DNA from: a bacterium
GTDB lineage: Bacteria; Sysuimicrobiota; Sysuimicrobiia; Sysuimicrobiales; Kaftiobacteriaceae
Length of the DNA stretch: 61,602 bases
NCBI GenBank assembly: GCA_036393975.1
Contig: DASWFZ010000098.1
Location: forward strand, 1 to 61,602
Direction: 5' to 3'
The notes beneath the pieces were generated by a model. The model was not told where the DNA came from and did no database searches. It saw nothing but the letters and a program-made list of their open reading frames with translations. The translations under genes and the position numbers were made by a program. Below are positions 4,286-32,939 of this stretch, piece by piece (within the stretch, counting starts at the first letter, position 1; each line of letters starts with the position of its first letter).

Positions 4286-5431
4286 TCAATCCCCATCACT
4301 GAAGTAGACGCCGATACAGCCGTTCGGGCAGCTGAAGCTGCCGGTGGTGCTGCCCGGCGGCAGCGGCACGAAGACATGGTTATTTGCTCGATTCGCCGCG
4401 ACCGAGTGAACGCCGTGCGACCCCGTGGGGACGGTGCCGAGCAGCATATTCGTCGCGGCGTCGATAATGCCCAGGACCGGCCCCGGCGTATTGTTTCGCG
4501 CGGCCAGATAGTAATTGCCATCACCCGGGTTGAACCAGACCTGGTCGGAGCCACCCACCAGCGTGGTCGAAGCCACGATCGCGCCCGTCCGCGCATTCAC
4601 GACCAGCGTTTCCTGCGTCTGGCACCCGACGATGAGGTGCTGGTGAGGTGTGAGAGCCAGGCCCCCGCCCTCACAGGTGCCGATATGGAGCTTATTCGTG
4701 ACTGTCCTCGTCCGGGGATCGATCTGCGCAATGTAGCTATCGCCACCGGTGTTGGGAACGTTTAAGTAGAACCGGCGGGTCGCCGGATCCCAGACCGACT
4801 GCTCCAGACCGTTGTCCGCATCGGCAAACACGAGCGTCCCGAGGACCGTACGGGTGTCGGTCGAGATGAAGGTCAGGTAAGGGGGGGTGTCGGCGTCGTT
4901 TGCCACCACCAGGATGTGATCATCCGGATCAAAAGCCATCTCGTCGGCGCGCGCCTGGCCGCCCGTGGAGATGGTGGCCACAATCTCAGGTGGAGTGGCC
5001 TTGAGGTCGATGACCTTAACGGTGCTGCACGGCGGGGCGGAGCACACTGGATTGTTACTCGGCCCGTCACCCACCCACAGCTCATGGAGGCTGTGGATGA
5101 CGAGGATCCCGTTGGGACCCGAGGTGTCATTGTTCCCCGAGAAGCCGACAAAGTGACCGTGGGCCAGCGTCTGGACGAAAGTGTCAGTTCGCGCATCGAT
5201 GACGTCGATCTGCTTGTTGGTCCGATCGGCTAGGTAGTAGGTCTGGGACGGTTCATCGACCCAGCTGATATCGAACCTTTGCACTTTTTCGCTGTTGGGC
5301 AACTTGATTACGGCTTTCAGCCCGAAGTTCTTGACGCTGTCCGCGTCGCCAGCGCGGCCTGGTCCGGCACTAACGAGAAAGGCAGTGATGACAAGAACCA
5401 CACACAGTGCGAGAGAGCAATTCCGCATCAT
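4286..5431 (-). CDS. Secreted beta-propeller repeat protein (YncE/lactonase-like fold suspected; function unknown)
   Basis: Signal peptide MMRNCSLALCVVLVITAFLVSAGPGRAG with a GGGGGAGG RBS about 7 nt upstream. Repetitive beta-strand-rich sequence (QTYYLADRTNKQIDVIDARTDTFV ...). Confidence 0.6.
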   Translation of the reverse strand: MMRNCSLALCVVLVITAFLVSAGPGRAGDADSVKNFGLKAVIKLPNSEKVQRFDISWVDEPSQTYYLADRTNKQIDVIDARTDTFVQTLAHGHFVGFSGNNDTSGPNGILVIHSLHELWVGDGPSNNPVCSAPPCSTVKVIDLKATPPEIVATISTGGQARADEMAFDPDDHILVVANDADTPPYLTFISTDTRTVLGTLVFADADNGLEQSVWDPATRRFYLNVPNTGGDSYIAQIDPRTRTVTNKLHIGTCEGGGLALTPHQHLIVGCQTQETLVVNARTGAIVASTTLVGGSDQVWFNPGDGNYYLAARNNTPGPVLGIIDAATNMLLGTVPTGSHGVHSVAANRANNHVFVPLPPGSTTGSFSCPNGCIGVYFSDGD

Positions 5432-7073: not shown

Positions 7074-7149
7074 GGGCCCGTAGCTCAGTGGACAGAGCAG
7101 GGGACTCCTAAGCCTCTGGTCGGGGGTTCGATTCCCTCCGGGCCCGCCA
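7074..7149 (+). tRNA. tRNA-Arg (anticodon CCT), CCA encoded
   Basis: Hand-folded cloverleaf. Acceptor GGGCCCG/CGGGCCC; D arm GCTC-AGTGGACA-GAGC; anticodon loop CTCCTAA (T33, CCT, A37); T arm GGGGG-TTCGATT-CCCTC; discriminator G; CCA at 7147-7149. There is one A-G mismatch at 31:39. Confidence 0.9.
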
Positions 7150-17787: not shown

Positions 17788-17832
17788 CTCCTAAGCTCCT
17801 GGTCGGGGGTTCGATTCCCTCCGGGCCCGCCA
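17788..17832 (+). repeat. tRNA-Arg(CCU) 3'-half copy 1 (att-like direct repeat)
   Basis: CTCCTAAGCTCCTGGTCGGGGGTTCGATTCCCTCCGGGCCCGCCA differs from 7105-7149 at only two positions, in the anticodon-stem 3' strand. Weaker D-arm-like similarity (GTACTCGTTGGAGAG) extends about 20 nt upstream. There is no intact acceptor 5' strand. Confidence 0.85.
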
Positions 17833-25454: not shown

Positions 25455-25496
25455 CTCCTAAGCCCCTGGTCGGGGGTTCGATTCCCTCCGGGCCCG
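25455..25496 (+). repeat. tRNA-Arg(CCU) 3'-half copy 2 (att-like direct repeat)
   Basis: CTCCTAAGCCCCTGGTCGGGGGTTCGATTCCCTCCGGGCCCG is followed by TCA instead of CCA. Scrambled pieces of the integrase-leader repeat (AAAGCCCCTGCTCACCC, AACCCGCATC) lie just upstream at 25388-25421. Confidence 0.8.
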
Positions 25497-25569
25497 TCAG
25501 CCTAATCCCTGCATCTATCAAGAATGACTGTGCGATGTGCTCTTCGAGATCTTCCGAGAGGACATTGCT

Positions 25570-25855: not shown

Positions 25856-27016
25856 CTACGCCACAAACAATCCCGTGAAGTACATGATGAGGAGTCCCGC
25901 TGCGAATCCGGCCACCTGATACCCGATAGCTGATCGCTCGCCGATGATCCACTTTACGAGTTCGTAGACGACTTGGAAGATGGCGCCGGCACCAATAGCT
26001 AGAAAGAGCGTGGCCACGATCGGTGAGTAGACGAGGCCGCCGATTAGGGCACCCAGAATCGTTGGGACCCCGGCCACCGCGCCGAGCACCGCCAGCGTGC
26101 CCGGCGCCGGCCGATCCCGCGCGACAGGCGCCACGATCCCCAGGCCTTCCGTGGTGTTGTGGAGCGTAAACCCCAGCACCAGAAATGTCCCAAGGGCCAC
26201 CTTGCCCAAGCTGTACGCCGACCCGATTGCCAGCCCCTCCCCCAAGTTGTGCAGGCCGATCCCGACCGCGATCAGAAATGCGAGGGCAAACCGACGCTGC
26301 ACGGCGTCACCGCCGGCGGACGCCCTGCGGCTGACGGCGATCAGCAGCAGCACGGTCAGAACGACCCCGACCAGCACCAGCGCCACTCCCTGGAATGCGG
26401 GCGGCAACGTGCCGGCGACCTCAAGCGCCTCATGGACGGCTTCTACTCCGAGAAACAGGAGTAGGCCGGCGGTGAGGCTGAGGAAGAAGGCGATCCACCG
26501 CTGGTTTAGTTCGCGCAGAAACGGGAACCACAGTAGCCCCAGCAGGACGGGGATAACGCCGACGTAGATGCCCAGCAAGGTGAACGTGGTCAGATAGCGG
26601 GCATCGACTGTCGGCGTGGCCGTGGCAACCTCCACCGTGTGCTCAAACGCGACCCCCGTGGACGTCAGGATCTTGATGTGGTGCGCCTCCCCCTGCACCC
26701 ACGGGTACCCGACGGTGATGGTGGCTCGCCCCAGCCTCGACACAGTGGCGCGAGGTTCCATCGTGAACTGCCAGTATGCGTCGTCGACCAAAACCTGAGC
26801 CACGGTTACAGTCTGAGGACCTCCATTGGTCACATGGATGACCATCGTCCCCGGGTTCAGCGTGACGCGATCGATGGTGAGCTGCTCTACCGGGGGAAAC
26901 GCTGCCACAAACACGCCCAGTGGGCCGAACCGCATCAGGACGCCCACCAAGCCGAGGAGCAGAAGAAGGGGGATGAGCGCCCACATCCAGCGGCGGGCGC
27001 GGCTAGATCCCGGCAT
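25856..27016 (-). CDS. ZIP-family divalent metal transporter with an extra N-terminal extracytoplasmic domain
   Basis: ZIP/ZupT motifs GIGLHNLGEGLAIG and HNTTEGLG in the C-terminal ~250 aa. The first ~140 aa are a signal-anchor plus a beta-rich domain. The start overlaps the MCO stop by 14 nt. Confidence 0.75.
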   Translation of the reverse strand: MPGSSRARRWMWALIPLLLLLGLVGVLMRFGPLGVFVAAFPPVEQLTIDRVTLNPGTMVIHVTNGGPQTVTVAQVLVDDAYWQFTMEPRATVSRLGRATITVGYPWVQGEAHHIKILTSTGVAFEHTVEVATATPTVDARYLTTFTLLGIYVGVIPVLLGLLWFPFLRELNQRWIAFFLSLTAGLLLFLGVEAVHEALEVAGTLPPAFQGVALVLVGVVLTVLLLIAVSRRASAGGDAVQRRFALAFLIAVGIGLHNLGEGLAIGSAYSLGKVALGTFLVLGFTLHNTTEGLGIVAPVARDRPAPGTLAVLGAVAGVPTILGALIGGLVYSPIVATLFLAIGAGAIFQVVYELVKWIIGERSAIGYQVAGFAAGLLIMYFTGLFVA

Positions 27017-28133
27017 TGTCCGTTACCTCAAACAGACCCATCCAGCCCAGCTCGGTGAACTCAGTCTGATGCGCATGGAACATGAACCGCCCCGCGAACG
27101 GGAACCGCACTTCCAACACTGCTCGTTCCGCCTGGCAGAGCATGATGGTGTCCGTGTACTCCGACGGCGTCAGTGACGTTCCGGTGCGGTACGTGTGGAA
27201 GAAGTTGCCATGGATGTGGATAGAGTTGATGGGATCAAACTCCGTCAGGTTCACCAGGTAGATGCGGACCAGAGTGTTGCGCGTCACTCGGATTGGATGC
27301 TTCGCATAGTGAAACGCGATGGAGTTGACGGCGTAGAAATCGTTCTTGGCGTCAAAGTTGGTGTCGAAGCCGTTCATCACCAAGACTAGCTCTTGCGCCG
27401 GCGGCCGACCCTGTTGCGGGTCGATGATAAACACCCCATACAGCCCCTTGTGGATGTGCCGTTTCAGCGGCAGCGCGTGACAGTGGTACAGGTGTAGGCC
27501 GAATGGAATCGCGTTAAATTCATAAGTAAATGTCCCACCCGGTTGAATCTCCCCGGGGCCGACGCCTGGTACTCCATCCATCTCTGACTTGTGGATCCCG
27601 TGGAAGTGCAGCGTGTGCGGGTGCGTGCCCGCGTTCACGAAGTGCACCCGCACTCGATCCCCCTCGCGCACGCGAAGCGTCGGACCGGGCACTGTGCCGT
27701 TGAAGGTCCACGCCGGGAAGAACACCCCGGGGGCGATCTCGATCTCGCGGTCGTAGGCGATGATCCTGAACTCCCGTTGCGTCCGGCCGTCCGGCAGTGT
27801 GCTCACTGTTCCGGTATCAAAGTGGGTGAGGTAGGTGAGTGGATCGAAGCCCAGGCGCTTGGTGTCCACATCACCGACGGTGAGATTGCCTCGATGCGCC
27901 GCTTCATGCGAACTGGTGTGCCCGCTGGAGGTCACCCGCGGCGTGGCGACCCCTAGCGCCGGGGCCGCAGCGGCAAAAGCAATGCTGCCGACCACACCGG
28001 CTCCGGCTCGCAAGAACTCCCGCCGGGTTGCATTACCATTTTGGGATGCTGGCGATGAAGGTCGAGGAAACCGCAATCTTGGGAGAAGACCAACGACACG
28101 TGCAACCAAGCATCGAAGGGCTCGGGCATTCAT
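27003..28133 (-). CDS. Two-domain multicopper oxidase, Tat-exported
   Basis: Twin-arginine signal TRREFLRAGAGVVGSIAFAAAAPALG. Copper-ligand motifs HTLHFHG, HLYHCH...H, HIHGN and FHAH. GGGAG RBS lies 7 nt before the ATG at 28133. Confidence 0.8.
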   Translation of the reverse strand: MNARALRCLVARVVGLLPRLRFPRPSSPASQNGNATRREFLRAGAGVVGSIAFAAAAPALGVATPRVTSSGHTSSHEAAHRGNLTVGDVDTKRLGFDPLTYLTHFDTGTVSTLPDGRTQREFRIIAYDREIEIAPGVFFPAWTFNGTVPGPTLRVREGDRVRVHFVNAGTHPHTLHFHGIHKSEMDGVPGVGPGEIQPGGTFTYEFNAIPFGLHLYHCHALPLKRHIHKGLYGVFIIDPQQGRPPAQELVLVMNGFDTNFDAKNDFYAVNSIAFHYAKHPIRVTRNTLVRIYLVNLTEFDPINSIHIHGNFFHTYRTGTSLTPSEYTDTIMLCQAERAVLEVRFPFAGRFMFHAHQTEFTELGWMGLFEVTDNAGI

Positions 28134-28178: not shown

Positions 28179-28428
28179 ATCATAGACCGCCCCGGTGCGC
28201 CGGTCAACCCCTGACGGCCCAAACATCTCCGCTGGGTTTTCCCGGAGCTCGCGGGGAGGCTTTCAAACCACGGGTGGCTCATCCGGCGCTATGGCCTCCA
28301 ATAGCTGGGGCTTGGTGGGCGGAAAAAAGCGGTCGTCGGTGGACGTGGAAAGAAACTTGGAAGTCGCGGAATCACCATCTATGCAGCGGTCGGGACGTCC
28401 GCAGACGTTGGTAGAAGATTGCTAGATC

Positions 28429-28476
28429 GGACTCCTAAGCCCCCGGGCGGGGGGTTGATTCCCTCCGGGCCCGCCA
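28429..28476 (+). repeat. tRNA-Arg(CCU) 3'-half copy 3 (most degraded att-like repeat)
   Basis: GGACTCCTAAGCCCCCGGGCGGGGGGTTGATTCCCTCCGGGCCCGCCA. The variable region is altered and the T loop has lost one base (TTGATT instead of TTCGATT). Confidence 0.75.
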
Positions 28477-28659
28477 ACCCGCATTAGGACGGCGTTTTTG
28501 CAATTTCGCGTCTGCAGAATCCTACAAAAAACCCCTGCTCCCCCGCTCCACGAGACCATAGAAACGCTCCTGCTGACGAAGCAGGCGCGGGCTCAGATTT
28601 CCAACAACCTTGGGCCGGCAGGGAGGTTGAAGAGGAAGTGCCCGCTCAAGTGCGTGTAA
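28477..28659 (+). pseudogene. Second integrase leader and N-terminus remnant (start codon lost)
   Basis: Collinear with 17833-17990: ACCCGCAT(C/T)AGGAC..TTTTGCAATTTCG..CAGAATCC(C)TACAAAAA.CCCCTGCTC.CCCGCTCC. ATA at 28558 sits where copy 1 has ATG at 17916, followed by LLLTKQA versus LVLTKQV. The frame stops at 28657. Confidence 0.65.
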
Positions 28660-28931
28660 CTCCTTGTGTTCGATGGCTCTCCCCCAGCCGTGTAGTCCGT
28701 TTACAGAAGGATGAGGGGAGTTCAAAAGTAGCGATGCTGTAGACAATACTCCCGAGCAACGGCCATAAGCTCTTAGTGACAGCTGGCGAAAGCGTACCAA
28801 GGTTCACAACGGAGGCGCGTGTTCGGATCGACCTGTAGCTGGTGCTGTACCGGCCTCCCGTCCAAAGGGCCAGGAGGCGCGTCTGCAGCCCGCGAAATAG
28901 TTCGGTCGTGCCGACGCTACCTTCTGATGAA

Positions 28932-29117
28932 ATGTGGCGACAACTCCTGACCGGAAAAAACCCCCAGATGCACAGGATGCGAGCGCTTCATCGACTCCTG
29001 CCGGCGAGCCCTCGGTGCAGGCTCTGTGCGGCCCCTTTCGGTGGGGTCGGCAGCCTCCTGATGCGGGTGATGGGGCATGGACCGTCACGGAAGAACCCTA
29101 ACTTCTGCAATACCTGA
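28932..29117 (+). other. N-terminal four-Cys zinc-ribbon segment of the cyclase gene, ending at an in-frame TGA
   Basis: Same frame as the 29124 ORF. ...RCRLCAAPFGGVGSLLMRVMGHGPSRKNPNFCNT-TGA-DIVARTHPGGAEIEL, so the pattern CxxC...CxxX has the TGA (29115-29117) at the fourth Cys position. Possible starts are ATG 28932 or ATG 28968. Confidence 0.55.
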
Positions 29118-29123
29118 GATATC

Positions 29124-29702
29124 GTGGCGCGCACGCACCCGGGCGGTGCGGAGATCGAGCTCTCCCTCTTGTTTGCTGACGTCCGCGGCTCCTCGACTCT
29201 GGCCGAGCGGATGAGCCCCGCGGAGTTCAGTCAGATCATGAACCGGTTCTACGCGGTGGCAAACAACATTCTGATTAGCTCGGATGCTCTCATCGACAAG
29301 CTTGTGGGGGATGAGGTCGTCGCCTTCTACATCCCGGCCGTCGGATTGGATCATCCGCGCTTTGCGATCAACGCGGCGCAGGCCCTGCTTCGAGCGACCG
29401 GCCACGCGGATCCTGGCGGGCCTTGGATTCCGGTCGGCGTCGGCGTCCATACCGGCATCGCCTATGTCGGCTCGGTGGGGACGAAAGAAACTGTTACGGA
29501 CTGGACAGCGCTGGGCGATGCAGTCAACGTCGCGGCCAGGCTGGCGCAGGTCGCCCAGGCCGGCGAGGCACTCATCAGCGACGCGGCGTATGCAGCATCC
29601 GCCCTCGACCTCGGCGCGTTGGAGCGCCGCCGGCTGGAGTTGAAAGGTCGCACGGAACCCATCGGCGTCCACGTGGTGCGCGCATCTCGTGCCACGATTT
29701 GA
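29124..29702 (+). CDS. Class III adenylate/guanylate cyclase catalytic domain (likely ATP-specific)
   Basis: LLFADVRGSSTLAERM and DKLVGDEVVAFY carry the metal-binding Asp residues. ALGDAVNVAARL and LELKGRTEPIGVHVV are also present. The Lys in KLVGD and the Asp in TDWTALGD sit where adenine-specifying K/D residues lie in class III cyclases. Confidence 0.8.
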   Translation: MARTHPGGAEIELSLLFADVRGSSTLAERMSPAEFSQIMNRFYAVANNILISSDALIDKLVGDEVVAFYIPAVGLDHPRFAINAAQALLRATGHADPGGPWIPVGVGVHTGIAYVGSVGTKETVTDWTALGDAVNVAARLAQVAQAGEALISDAAYAASALDLGALERRRLELKGRTEPIGVHVVRASRATI

Positions 29703-30003
29703 GGTTAGACTCTGGGTCAGGAGACCATTGCTCGCACGATGCACTTTGGCCGCCTCGTAGCACGGCCAGTGTCTACACGTCAGCATCGGAGCGGGGCCTG
29801 GCTACGCAAGGTCGAGCGGGATGAGGACTGCCCCAGCCCTAGTGCAAGACGCGTGGGACTGAGCAAGGCCTCCAGACTGACTTCGTCGCCCTAGAGCATG
29901 TGCCCATGTCACGTCCCCATCGCCGCGAGCCGGGGATCACTCCTCCGCTCGTAAGAAGCCAGTGCCGATCGGCTGGTGCACGGACGCAGTGGCTTGAGCC
30001 TAC

Positions 30004-30030
30004 TTGAACAGTTTCGAGTGTTGAACAGTT
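30004..30030 (+). promoter_or_regulatory. Direct repeat TTGAACAGTT x2 in the AT-rich region upstream of the cNMP-binding/flavoprotein operon
   Basis: TTGAACAGTT at 30004-30013 and 30021-30030 (17-bp register), followed by GAAAAAT. About 65-90 nt upstream of the start at 30097. Confidence 0.35.
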
Positions 30031-30096
30031 GAAAAATCACACCCCACCCAGTCACCGCACTGCGTTGTCACCTTCCAGGAATCGGGGAACTCCGTG

Positions 30097-30513
30097 ATGA
30101 GTCGGGCGGAACTGATTGACACGCTCGCTGGGCTGGCACTATTTGCGGATCTGTCGCGCCCCCAGTTGGAAGCCGTGGCGCATACCTTCGAGGAGGAATA
30201 CTTCGCGGACGGACAGCGCGTCCTACGGCAGGGATTTTCCGGCAGCAACCTCTACATTGTCGTCAGCGGTCAGGCCGCGGTCCACGTGGATGGTACGCAA
30301 CGGACGATACTGTCCCGGGGGGATTTCTTTGGGGAGATCTCCATTCTCCTCGGAGAGCCGCCGGTCGCAGATGTCGTTGCCATGGGCCCTCTGCGCTGCC
30401 TCGCCCTCGCTGGTTCTGAGGTAGAGACCTTCCTACTAGCCTATCCTCGTGTGACCTACCGGATGCTACAGGCCGAAGCACGGCGCGTGCGGAGCACCAA
30501 CTTGTGGCGGTGA
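30097..30513 (+). CDS. Stand-alone cyclic-nucleotide-binding (CNB) domain protein, no output domain
   Basis: LFADLSRPQLEAVAHTFEEEYFADGQRVLRQG ... GDFFGEISILLGEPPVADVVA has the CAP/CNB fold pattern. The phosphate-binding-cassette Arg position is occupied by Pro (PVA instead of R-S/T-A). GTG at 30094 is an alternative start. Confidence 0.8.
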   Translation: MSRAELIDTLAGLALFADLSRPQLEAVAHTFEEEYFADGQRVLRQGFSGSNLYIVVSGQAAVHVDGTQRTILSRGDFFGEISILLGEPPVADVVAMGPLRCLALAGSEVETFLLAYPRVTYRMLQAEARRVRSTNLWR

Positions 30514-32036
30514 CGCGCCGGCAGCCCCAGTCCCGCCGGCGGCGTAGCGCGTCGGTGCGTCCGTTTCCGCCCGGGTGGTACCCGGTCATTACCGTCGGTA
30601 GCGGCCCGGGCGGGTTGCAGACCAGTTACTTCCTGCGGCGGCTTGGCGTCGAGCATGCCGCCCTCTCGGCGGATCCGGGGGCAGGGGGCATGTTCCGTCG
30701 CTATCCGCTCTTTCAGCGGCTCATCAGCTGGTCCAAGCCGTACGCGCCGGTCGAGCGTGGCACACGGCCGTACGAGTGGTACGACTGGAACAGCCTGCTG
30801 GGGGATGCACCGGGTCACGGGGCGCTCGTCCCAGAGTTCATGGACGGGAATTCGTATTTCCCCTCGCGCACCGCGATGGAACGCGGCTTGGCCGCATTTG
30901 CTGATCGCGCCCGCGTGCCGGTCAGGTACAACTGCCGATGGGAAGGGACGAAGAGAACCGATGATGGGTTCGTGCTGGTCACTAGCGACGGTGAGTACGC
31001 CTGCCGCGTGGTCGTGTTCGCCATCGGCATGGCGGAGCCGTGGACTCCTGAGGTGCCCGGCATGGATCTGGTCCCGCACTACGTGCGAACGGCATCGCCG
31101 CGCGAGTATGCGGATAAGCGGGTCGTGATCCTCGGCAAGCGCAATTCAGGGTTTGAAGTGGCCGATGCCCTGTTGCCGTGGGCGCGCCAGATTATTTTGT
31201 TGTCTCCGCGGCCGGCGCTCCTGTCCATTCACAGCCGCTCGACCGCCGGTGTTCGCGCCCGGTATTTGCTCCCGTACGAGGATCATGTGCTCGGCGGCGG
31301 AGTGTTCGTCCTGGATGCCGCGACCGAACGCATCGAGCGCACCCCCTCAGGGTACCGCGTCTACGCCAAGGGCACGACGCGACCGAGTGATTTTGCCCTC
31401 GACACCGATACGGTCATCGCCGCAACCGGCTTCACGACGCCACTACTGGATCTCCGTACCCTGGGGGTTGCGACGTTCAACCAAGATCGACTGCCCGCGT
31501 TGACCCCGTTCTGGGAGAGTACGACGGTGCGCGGAGTCTTTTTCGCCGGAACGGTTACCCAGGGAGCGATCGGGCTGAAAAAACACGGGATCCCCAGCAA
31601 CTCGGGCGGGGTCGCAGGGTTCAGGCACAATGCACGCGTGCTAGCGCGTCATTTAGCGGAGACCTACTTTGGCATCACCGTCCCACGGGCCGGTCTGCGG
31701 CGGGACAATGTGGTACTGCACCTGTTATCGGAAGTGACGCACGCTCCCGAATTGTGGAATCAGCGTTCATATCTGGCCCGCGTGGTGAACGTGCACTCGC
31801 GCGAAAGGATCGAGGAAGAAGGGATTCTGCCGCTCTCCCACTTCGTTGATGTGGGCGGGCCCGATGCGGTCGCGATCGTCCTGGAGACCGACCAGACGGG
31901 CGATCACCACCCGGCTGTCTACGTTCGCCGCGGCGGCCGCGTGACCGAACACGTACTCCCGTCAGACCCCCTGCACAACTTCGAAACGCCCGCCCACCGT
32001 GCGCAACTGACCGCGCTACTGGACGGACTGCTGTAG
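30504..32036 (+). CDS. NAD(P)/FAD-dependent oxidoreductase (flavin monooxygenase / thioredoxin-reductase-like two-dinucleotide-binding fold)
   Basis: FAD motif VITVGSGPGG and second Rossmann motif VVILGKRNSGFEVA. The start (GTG 30504 or GTG 30510) overlaps the CNB stop (GTGA), implying translational coupling. The ~120-aa C-terminal extension has no function I can assign. Confidence 0.75.
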   Translation: MAVTRRQPQSRRRRSASVRPFPPGWYPVITVGSGPGGLQTSYFLRRLGVEHAALSADPGAGGMFRRYPLFQRLISWSKPYAPVERGTRPYEWYDWNSLLGDAPGHGALVPEFMDGNSYFPSRTAMERGLAAFADRARVPVRYNCRWEGTKRTDDGFVLVTSDGEYACRVVVFAIGMAEPWTPEVPGMDLVPHYVRTASPREYADKRVVILGKRNSGFEVADALLPWARQIILLSPRPALLSIHSRSTAGVRARYLLPYEDHVLGGGVFVLDAATERIERTPSGYRVYAKGTTRPSDFALDTDTVIAATGFTTPLLDLRTLGVATFNQDRLPALTPFWESTTVRGVFFAGTVTQGAIGLKKHGIPSNSGGVAGFRHNARVLARHLAETYFGITVPRAGLRRDNVVLHLLSEVTHAPELWNQRSYLARVVNVHSRERIEEEGILPLSHFVDVGGPDAVAIVLETDQTGDHHPAVYVRRGGRVTEHVLPSDPLHNFETPAHRAQLTALLDGLL

Positions 32037-32156
32037 ACCTATCCAACCCAAATCAGATCCACCCACCCCAAGATCGCACAACGAGGATGGCTGAGCCCGG
32101 GTCTCCTTAACTCAACCATCTATCTGAGGGGTCAGGCAGAGTTGGTGGACTCGTAG

Positions 32157-32579
32157 TCAGTGCGTGTGTTGCTCGCTGACGCTGCGCAGACGACTGGCCA
32201 CGACGCGGAGGAGGGCAAGGGTCATCTTTGGGTTTTTCTCCAGGAGCTTTGAGAGCTCCCAGGAAGCCAAGGCGAGGCAGGTCGTGGGTTCCTCGGCGAT
32301 GACATGGGCCATCCGGGGCGTTTGGTCTAGCACCGACAATTCGCCGAAAAAGTCCCCCGGGCCCAGGCGGGCGATAACATTGTTCCCCCGCACCACTCTG
32401 GCCCGACCGGCGGCGATGAGGTAGAAGCCGGTTCCGACCTGGCCCTGTCGGACGACGTACCGCTCCGGCGCGAAGTCGATTTCGGTCATCAGGCCCACAA
32501 TCTCGCCCAGCGCCTTCGGGCCAACGCCGGAAAACAGACTGACCTTGCGCAACAGGGTGGTCTTTTGGTTCTTAGTCAA
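32157..32579 (-). CDS. Stand-alone cyclic-nucleotide-binding domain protein (canonical phosphate-binding cassette)
   Basis: LRKVSLFSGVGPKALGEIVGLMTEIDFAPERYVVRQG ... GDFFGELSVLDQTPRMAHVIA, with the Arg of the cassette retained. 140 aa, no HTH. TTG start. Confidence 0.8.
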   Translation of the reverse strand: MTKNQKTTLLRKVSLFSGVGPKALGEIVGLMTEIDFAPERYVVRQGQVGTGFYLIAAGRARVVRGNNVIARLGPGDFFGELSVLDQTPRMAHVIAEEPTTCLALASWELSKLLEKNPKMTLALLRVVASRLRSVSEQHTH

Positions 32580-32642
32580 GGCCCTTGATTACTCCCAGGG
32601 TGGGTGCGAGTTGGTTCCCTCTGCATTCTTCCGTCTCCTGCG

Positions 32643-32939
32643 TCAGCGCAGTTTGACGTCCGGGGCCTTGAGGGTCGCCCCCGTCTCATCGAGGATCCCG
32701 ATCTTCGTCTGAATAGTCGCTCGGCTGGCGACAAACAGATCGTCGCGGTGAATCGCAAGAAAGCGGTAACCCAGAAGGGGCTTGAGCCGCGCGATGGCCG
32801 CGGGGATATCGTCCGGAGAGGGGGCCACGATGATCACACCCCCCGACGTGCGCACATCAACTTGGCCCGTGGGATCGGGGGTGCCCTGGAGTCGCTGGCA
32901 GAGACGGTCGATCAGTTCCTGGCGGGTGAGCCTGGGCAT
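32643..32939 (-). CDS. Hypothetical 98-aa protein; last-but-one gene of the mannitol operon
   Basis: GGAGCG RBS 5 nt upstream. Starts 9 nt after the mtlD stop. I could recognise no family. Confidence 0.5.
   Translation of the reverse strand: MPRLTRQELIDRLCQRLQGTPDPTGQVDVRTSGGVIIVAPSPDDIPAAIARLKPLLGYRFLAIHRDDLFVASRATIQTKIGILDETGATLKAPDVKLR

Follow-up and report, generated by a model that had tools for sequence, protein, structure and literature searches.

The locus described here lies on contig DASWFZ010000098.1 (GenBank assembly GCA_036393975.1), a 61,602-nucleotide (nt) stretch of DNA from a bacterium of the Kaftiobacteriaceae, which was analysed at its full length and is referred to below as the window. 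An earlier reading of the same DNA (the original prediction) had placed in it a candidate small-molecule signalling module made of four genes: a zinc-ribbon class III cyclase, two proteins consisting only of a cyclic nucleotide-binding (CNB) domain, here CNB1 and CNB2, and a flavoprotein whose gene overlaps that of CNB1. This four-gene layout was borne out by the list of open reading frames (ORFs), by the sequence and by Pfam matches on all four products, and the profile searches that had been proposed along with it (Guanylate_cyc, cNMP_binding for both CNB proteins and Pyr_redox_3) all returned matches. Ten metagenome or metagenome-assembled genome (MAG) contigs carried the locus with an identical flavoprotein. 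The central pair of genes, their junction and the convergent neighbour are as follows:

30097..30513, plus strand: CNB1, a stand-alone CNB-fold protein (PF00027) with the cassette FGEISILLGEPPVADVVA
30504..30513, plus strand: overlap junction, with the GTG-GCG start of the flavoprotein gene within the last codons of CNB1 (..L-W-R-stop) and a GGAG 9 nt upstream (30491-30494)
30504..32036, plus strand: two-Rossmann FAD/NAD(P)-type flavoprotein of 510 amino acids (aa), from an uncharacterised subfamily (Pyr_redox_3)
32157..32579, minus strand: CNB2, a stand-alone 140-aa CNB protein (PF00027) with the canonical cassette FGELSVLDQTPRMAHV, convergent with the flavoprotein gene

CNB1 (30094-30513, plus strand) matched the Pfam family cNMP_binding (PF00027) with an E-value of 2.9e-15 and 56.4 bits against a cut-off of 27.5. 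The protein measures 138 aa from ATG 30097 or 139 aa from GTG 30094, and its gene ends in TGA. CNB2 matched the same family at 1.4e-18 (67.1 bits, cut-off 27.5). With 138-140 aa, both proteins were CNB-only, in agreement with the claim that neither of them has an output domain. The flavoprotein matched Pyr_redox_3 (2.6e-31) and Pyr_redox_2 (5.2e-13) and carried the FAD motif GSGPGG. Its gene starts at GTG 30504, which creates a 10-nt overlap with CNB1 in the window. The original prediction had placed the junction at the GTGA at 30510; the overlap as such stood, and this 4-nt version proved to be an in-frame alternative to the orthologue-like start at GTG 30504.

A scan of one genome per species yielded 233 relatives of the flavoprotein, and the best 80 of these 233 were used for all locus counts given here. 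The 80 loci came from MAGs of Armatimonadota, unclassified 'bacterium'/ANGP1, Candidatus Fervidifonticultor, Geohabitans and Actinomycetota. A CNB1 orthologue was located directly upstream, on the same strand, in 79 of them (phmmer E-values from 1e-49 to 1e-79), and the sole exception was a sequence that begins 90 nt before the flavoprotein gene and so has no upstream DNA. The pairing held in the most divergent pairs checked (L095 and L098). In about 62 of 78 loci, the (A/G)TG-GCG start of the flavoprotein gene fell within the codons of the invariant C-terminal Trp-Arg of CNB1, producing an overlap of 13 or 10 nt. Synteny with the nearest relatives (L011-L013) was limited to CNB1, the flavoprotein and CNB2. 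No CNB1 neighbour was present at P0454, a second-tier relative of the flavoprotein that keeps the canonical motif GKGNSA. The flavoprotein had been proposed as the obvious partner of the CNB protein, and this link gained support: the two genes stay together in two or more phyla, and the overlapping form of their junction is conserved too. The same comparison of neighbourhoods did not extend to the zinc-ribbon cyclase, which was missing from all 80 related loci, including L011-L013. With their genes paired in this way here and in almost all of the relatives recovered, CNB1 and the flavoprotein very probably work together in a chromosomal unit of signalling or metabolism, and we are largely confident that the two are functionally linked.

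The flavoprotein belongs to a family whose members are 57-80% identical across Armatimonadota-like lineages and Actinomycetota. Its best 120 protein matches were all of about 500 aa and 63-81% identical, and were named only 'NAD(P)-binding domain-containing protein' or 'thioredoxin reductase', while a cluster look-up of the family returned no names. The NCBIfam scores were far below the cut-offs for YpdA (TIGR04018, 46.2 against 339.9), for ArsO (69 against 425) and for thioredoxin reductase (TrxR; TIGR01292, 21.8 bits against 343). No CxxC was conserved in the family, the only nearly invariant Cys being C144. An identity as thioredoxin reductase was rejected on the missing CxxC and the TIGR01292 score, and membership in the YpdA/Bdr family on the TIGR04018 score, the likeness to YpdA/Bdr being at the level of the fold only. 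The best sequence match in the PDB was the TrxR-like 2zbw, at 1.7e-14 over part of the chain in a hidden Markov model search. When the AlphaFold model (mean pLDDT 72.6) was compared by Foldseek, target-normalised template modelling scores were 0.74-0.77 against YpdA/Bdr (7a7b/7a76/7apr) and 0.68-0.74 against small bacterial flavin-containing monooxygenases (FMOs; 4a9w/4c5o). These nearest solved folds were at most 22% identical and constitute superfamily-level matches only. Altogether, the sequence and the model point to an FMO-like or YpdA-like FAD-dependent two-Rossmann enzyme from an uncharacterised subfamily.

What the flavoprotein shares with YpdA/Bdr, SMFMO and the TrxR-like ferredoxin-NADP reductases is the two-dinucleotide-binding-domain fold of its N-terminal 390 residues. 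It differs from them by three conserved inserts, by an extra C-terminal domain, by GKRNSG in place of GxGxxG and by the lack of CxxC. The inserts (71-97, 238-265 and 352-371) are family-specific and strongly conserved, and were of low confidence in the single-chain AlphaFold model. The C-terminal alpha/beta domain of about 115 aa (residues 393-510; window 31680-32033) is also family-specific; modelled alone it reached a pLDDT of 92.9, and Foldseek found no PDB counterpart for it (best E-value 0.1). The GKRNSG motif occupies residues 211-216 (window 31134-31151), where Arg stands in place of the central Gly of the second dinucleotide-binding motif. The CNB-associated subfamily showed GK[R/M/Q]NSG in the members checked, in contrast to GKGNS[A/G] in second-tier relatives, so that the pyridine-nucleotide site of this subfamily may be altered.

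An exhaustive profile search gave 461 cluster representatives of the flavoprotein below 1e-30. Second-tier and longer relatives were fused to AMP-binding/PP-binding (adenylation/carrier) or IDO domains, and such fusions are typical of natural-product oxygenases. The original prediction had referred to single-polypeptide fusions of CNB domains with thioredoxin-reductase-like proteins in other bacteria. These could not be tied to this CxxC-free family, and no CNB-flavoprotein fusion appeared among the top matches of the flavoprotein, of CNB1 and of the profile searches. At L096 (885-4004), the divergent relative P0368 (GKQNSG) had no upstream CNB gene and was overlapped by a 1,039-aa DUF4062-AAA_16-HTH_77-TPR STAND protein; this neighbour echoes the cyclase-ATPase-TPR proteins that stand beside the CNB1-flavoprotein pair elsewhere.

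CNB1 itself belongs to a family that is always stand-alone, about 139 aa long and 67-87% identical over the Armatimonadota-like lineages and Actinomycetota. Its cassette reads FGE[V/I]S[V/I]LLGEPP[T/I/V]ADVVA (n = 76), with Pro90 invariant in 76/76 sequences and Asp93 present in 75/76. The best PDB matches of the CNB1 profile were the CNB domains of PKA and PKG, with E-values from 1e-26 to 8e-37. The alignment of the profile to the cassettes of Plasmodium PKG (FGERALLYDEPRSATIIA) and PKA fixed the positions of both residues: the Pro occupies the place of the phosphate-binding Arg and the Asp that of the following Thr/Ser. The canonical cassette (P/E)R(S/T/A)A(S/T), with its conserved Arg, was therefore not found in CNB1. 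CNB2 orthologues presented FGELSVLDQxPRxAHV with Arg89 invariant in 26/26 sequences, as the canonical form requires. The contrast already pointed out in the window, between Pro in GEPPVADV of CNB1 and Arg in TPRMAHV of CNB2, was thus confirmed, and the alignments indicate that it is a family-wide property and not a local mutation. As the phosphate-binding Arg has been lost to Pro and an Asp gained, we infer that CNB1 does not bind cAMP or cGMP in the classical way and that its ligand is not a classical cyclic nucleoside monophosphate (cNMP).

A precedent for such a change exists in the PKA regulatory subunits of kinetoplastids, where the CNB Arg is replaced, an acidic residue excludes the cyclic phosphate, and the domains take inosine, guanosine or adenosine as ligands in place of cAMP (Ober et al. 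2024, PMC10959531). CNB1 likewise lacks the Arg, which is Pro, and has a near-invariant Asp in its cassette. The two cases differ in that the trypanosome Glu replaces Ala202, whereas the Asp of CNB1 sits at the Thr212-equivalent position, and the comparison is an analogy only. It is conceivable, though doubtful, that CNB1 is a re-purposed CNB fold that binds a non-cyclic ligand, such as a nucleoside or the adenosine moiety of a cofactor. It would then be an obligatory subunit through which a new class of flavoenzyme, with a remodelled NAD(P)H site, senses this ligand, and CNB2-type proteins and cyclases would form a second, cAMP-dependent layer on the same enzyme. If so, it would represent an undescribed, nucleotide-derived gating of redox chemistry in Actinomycetota and Armatimonadota-like bacteria.

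Gene order and overlap demonstrate co-expression, not contact, and the pair could also be explained by two proteins that work in one pathway without touching each other. CNB1 would then buffer or carry a ligand, or regulate a third protein, and the overlap would ensure stoichiometric co-expression only. Partnerless stand-alone CNB proteins do exist, and one of them, a 149-aa 'putative transcriptional regulator' (PDB 2pqq), was among the matches of the CNB1 profile. In some lineages further genes join the operon; in 18 actinobacterial loci, for instance, one for a CoA_binding_2 protein follows after 4 nt. Against this, the pairing is near-absolute (79/80) over a wide divergence while every other neighbour changes, both CNB1 and the flavoprotein are unusually conserved, and the three conserved inserts of the flavoprotein, poorly modelled when the chain is alone, could be interface elements. 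We therefore regard an arrangement without contact as unlikely and retain a partnership of CNB1 with the flavoprotein.

The second CNB gene and the cyclases were more loosely associated with this partnership. A second canonical CNB-only gene was present in 40 of the 80 loci and was of two types. In 25 loci of non-actinobacterial lineages a CNB2-type orthologue was placed convergently downstream, 3-1152 nt away. In 15 actinobacterial loci the gene encoded a different canonical CNB-only paralogue (FGELALL..R[T/S]ARV) on the opposite strand, divergently upstream in 11 of the 15. Cyclase domains were found in 21 ORFs from 18 of the 80 loci, all of other architectures than that of the window and most of them cyclase-ATPase-TPR proteins of roughly 1,100-1,200 aa. 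An edge of 17 of these 21 ORFs lay at most 1.5 kb from the CNB1-flavoprotein unit, a distance that covered only 25% of the sampled flanking DNA, although the count of cyclase neighbours is inflated by relatedness among the loci. Three arrangements were seen: upstream on the same strand (L030, L048, L066 and L071), upstream on the opposite strand, and convergent downstream. The original prediction of a cyclase near the pair thus applies to cyclase genes in general and not to the zinc-ribbon cyclase of the window. These data support a recurrent but non-obligatory connection of the unit with cNMP synthesis. Since half of the loci have no second CNB gene and about 78% have no cyclase nearby, control by cAMP is not universal to the unit.

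Other neighbours were limited to sub-clades and are not core parts. The CoA_binding_2 protein (PF13380) mentioned above, of about 148 aa, is encoded about 4 nt after the flavoprotein gene on the same strand in 18 actinobacterial loci, including L029, L093 and L094, and is not in the window; it is a possible sign of a role connected with CoA or thiols in the actinobacterial lineage. An ATP-sulfurylase-like gene, identified by eye from the sequence, was near the pair in 11 loci, and an ABC transporter in 11-16 loci. Elsewhere the flanks were ordinary and variable, with folate enzymes, gyrB/gyrA (in L094) and WhiB. In a MAG of the same species as the window (L008 4344-4736, GCA_009772585.1), CNB2 was split into two overlapping ORF pieces and had not been called as a gene, owing to a frameshift or to faulty assembly. 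Next to CNB2, on its downstream side, a 98-aa ORF (window 32643-32939, minus strand) had no Pfam match below an E-value of 0.03; it counts as a gene in those same-species contigs that extend to it.

The cyclase gene of the window lies upstream of CNB1, from which it is separated by 392 nt, and shows an interrupted frame:

28908..29702, plus strand: gene for a zinc ribbon and a class III adenylate cyclase, about 264 codons, interrupted by a TGA (PF00211 and homologue coverage)
29115..29117, plus strand: in-frame TGA at the invariant fourth Cys of the CxxC...CxxC zinc ribbon (consensus NPNFCNxCE)

When the frame was joined across the TGA, it matched Guanylate_cyc (PF00211) with an E-value of 2.4e-12 and 47.3 bits against a cut-off of 21.9, and intact homologues of 260-270 aa spanned 97-100% of it. 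As it stands, the gene is split into an ORF at 28842-29117, which holds the zinc ribbon and ends in the TGA, and a same-frame ORF at 29124-29702 that follows after two codons (GAT ATC). The presence of a cyclase gene was thereby confirmed; its start had been set at ATG 28932, and homology makes GTG 28908 (M-PTLPSDEMWR) the most likely start. We aligned the window sequence with 14 intact homologues, numbering residues from Met 28932. All invariant columns were kept: D83, D127, K123, D190, N199 and R203. In class III cyclases, D83 and D127 correspond to the metal-binding Asp residues, K123 and D190 specify the substrate, and N199 and R203 act in the transition state; a Lys/Asp pair at the substrate-specifying positions denotes ATP as the substrate. 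The adenine-type pair ascribed to this cyclase was therefore present in the alignment.

The in-frame TGA was likewise as the original prediction had described it. It falls in a column that was Cys in 14/14 homologues, and the same split ORFs occurred in 8/8 same-species contigs covering the site, so that it is not a read error. The reading frame of a class III cyclase is thus interrupted in the window, with TGA in place of a zinc-ligand Cys. The TGA could in principle encode a selenocysteine that serves as the zinc ligand, in which case the cyclase would be intact and the four genes a working generator-receptor-enzyme module. A Cys position is the classic site for selenocysteine, every invariant residue elsewhere in the gene is retained, and the TGA is fixed in the 8 contigs, which derive from several samples. 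Yet the 91 nt around and after the TGA folded no better than shuffled sequences (z = +1.5; 191/200 shuffles at least equal), no Rfam family was found in 28700-30200, no selenocysteine tRNA (tRNA-Sec) was found within the window, and TGA serves as the ordinary stop of the next gene, CNB1. In addition, one TGC/TGT-to-TGA substitution suffices as the origin and is the simplest one. With neither a structure resembling a selenocysteine insertion sequence nor a tRNA-Sec in the window, the selenocysteine reading was set aside as very improbable.

The TGA is most economically read as a recent nonsense mutation. Because it replaces an invariant zinc-ligand Cys, the window cyclase is probably a pseudogene, or else yields no more than a 192-aa catalytic fragment that begins at GTG 29124. 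The proposal that it belongs to the module did not hold, given its absence from the related loci and its nonsense codon; it is probably a lineage-specific neighbour, inactivated or truncated. As the cyclase is probably dead, any cAMP would have to be supplied by another part of the genome.

The surroundings of the cyclase gene also bear on the genomic setting of the pair. The last of a series of attachment (att) scars lies upstream of it:

28450..28476, plus strand: att scar, the 3′ end of tRNA-Arg(CCT), last of three copies (repeat search; intact tRNA located)

The intact tRNA-Arg(CCT) was located at 7074-7149, and its 3′ 27 nt (7123-7149) recurred at 17806-17832, 25473-25499 and 28450-28476, with 0-3 mismatches relative to the searched copy at 28450-28476, where 0 matches are expected by chance. 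The att scar that had been reported is thus real, and the repeats imply three tandem integrations into tRNA-Arg(CCT), which places three islands between the tRNA and 28476. The four genes are downstream of the last scar, in the flanking chromosome. Because they are outside the islands bounded by the att copies, the argument that a position at an island edge fits an accessory function carries little weight. An integrase remnant had been described next to the last scar and could not be verified: a six-frame Pfam scan of roughly 28430-28845 found no integrase signal, and the ORF beside the intact tRNA had no other match within the window, and hence offered no probe for integrase remnants.

Between the last scar and the cyclase gene, about 370 nt (28477-28845) appeared to be non-coding, and a promoter and terminator scan of 28400-32800 gave nothing above chance expectation. 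Just upstream of the scar (25856-28133, minus strand), the gene of a ZIP metal transporter shares 14 nt with that of a Tat-signal multicopper oxidase, and this overlap was kept in the same-species contigs reaching that far. Further away, at 4516-4603 (minus strand), ARAGORN called a 'tRNA-???' with a two-base anticodon, for which Rfam found no tRNA or tRNA-Sec even at E-values up to 1; the call is probably spurious, or else marks a decayed fragment.

The resemblance of the locus to cyclic-nucleotide defence had led to the proposal of a Pycsar-type system. According to this idea, which would also cover a purine 'Pucsar'-like variant, infection would prompt the cyclase to synthesise a cyclic nucleotide, the CNB proteins would be its sensors and the flavoprotein would be a toxic effector of a new kind. 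PADLOC did return PycC matches to the cyclase (best 2.2e-15), as well as matches with PycTIR/TIR effectors in their CNB part (2e-10 to 3e-14), but these reached no further than the cyclase and CNB folds, which are generic, and none fell on the flavoprotein. Likewise, the genes adjoin an array of att scars but are outside the att-bounded islands. The STAND protein that overlaps the related flavoprotein P0368 could also speak for defence, as could the purine-cyclase offshoots of Pycsar reported in a preprint (bioRxiv 10.64898/2026.08.12.744502). Several observations oppose the proposal: the locus has no TIR or transmembrane effector domain, its CNB proteins being CNB-only; the window cyclase carries a nonsense codon and occurs in 0/80 related loci; and the pair, at 57-87% identity, is strongly conserved in chromosomal surroundings that are ordinary and differ between loci. 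The flavoprotein family had no match in 50,697 phage records, and among 72,556 plasmid records only relatives of 31-33% identity were found, on two actinomycete plasmid-listed replicons, so that phage relatives were lacking and plasmid ones were remote. The defence proposal thus fails on effector type, co-conservation and context, and we consider it hardly credible. We infer instead that the CNB1-flavoprotein unit serves housekeeping-type signalling or metabolism.

Altogether, the picture that we favour, with moderate confidence, is that of a two-gene chromosomal operon of CNB1 and a flavoenzyme, in which CNB1 is the partner of the enzyme, cAMP enters through CNB2 and cyclases where these are present, and the whole belongs to housekeeping-type signalling or metabolism. 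CNB1 and the flavoenzyme would be made together through their overlapping, translationally coupled junction. CNB1 may then act on the flavoenzyme by protein-protein contact, as a regulatory or structural subunit or as an allosteric partner. Where a cAMP input exists, it would be supplied by neighbouring class III adenylate cyclases and received by a canonical CNB-only protein (CNB2 here, the other paralogue in Actinomycetota), and CNB2-type proteins could possibly act on the unit via CNB-CNB contacts through their C-terminal helices.

Several points weigh against this picture. The three closest relatives (L011-L013) showed no overlap, with gaps of about 18-270 nt between the two genes. The loci are phylogenetically related, and their counts overstate the number of independent events. 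The physical interaction of CNB1 with the flavoprotein is deduced from gene order alone. A second CNB gene was missing in 40 of the 80 loci, 32 of which had adequate flanks, and a nearby cyclase was missing in about 78%. Finally, the atypical NAD(P)H-site motif GKRNSG makes the reductant of the flavoprotein uncertain.

The pairing ties a stand-alone CNB protein by gene overlap to a flavoenzyme in at least 79 species-level genomes, largely from uncultured lineages, and gives a conserved flavoprotein family, which has no solved or named relative, a first point of entry to its function. If CNB1 and the flavoprotein do form a complex, redox enzymology would be a new output class for the CNB fold, possibly with a new ligand. 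Literature searches on CNB domains with thioredoxin reductase or flavoprotein, and on stand-alone CNB proteins, found no description of the pair, and databases gave it only generic domain labels.

Bacterial CNB domains with known outputs mostly share their polypeptide with a DNA-binding, channel, acetyltransferase or toxic effector domain. With Pycsar (PMC11224242), the locus shares a class III-fold cyclase gene near CNB-domain genes and generic PADLOC matches. It differs in lacking a TIR or transmembrane effector, in having a purine-type K/D cyclase that is not co-conserved, and in the stable chromosomal context of the pair. The likeness to PKA lies in a CNB fold on a separate polypeptide that presumably controls a co-encoded enzyme in trans. 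Unlike the PKA subunit, CNB1 is a single 139-aa domain with no inhibitor or linker segment and no phosphate-binding Arg, and its predicted partner is a flavoenzyme, not a kinase. The mycobacterial Pat (CNB-GNAT, Rv0998 type), in which cAMP controls the enzyme allosterically, is similar in that a bacterial CNB domain is coupled to a metabolic enzyme and not to DNA binding. ActPatMycb56 was the best NCBIfam match of both CNB1 (1.1e-08) and CNB2 (8.8e-11), over the CNB part only and with 34-41 bits against a cut-off of 460. Pat is a single polypeptide, whereas here the CNB domain and the enzyme are encoded by separate genes. The pair is best filed not as a new kind of system, but as a variant of CNB-controlled enzyme regulation whose parts are split, whose receptor is degenerate and whose output is a flavoenzyme.

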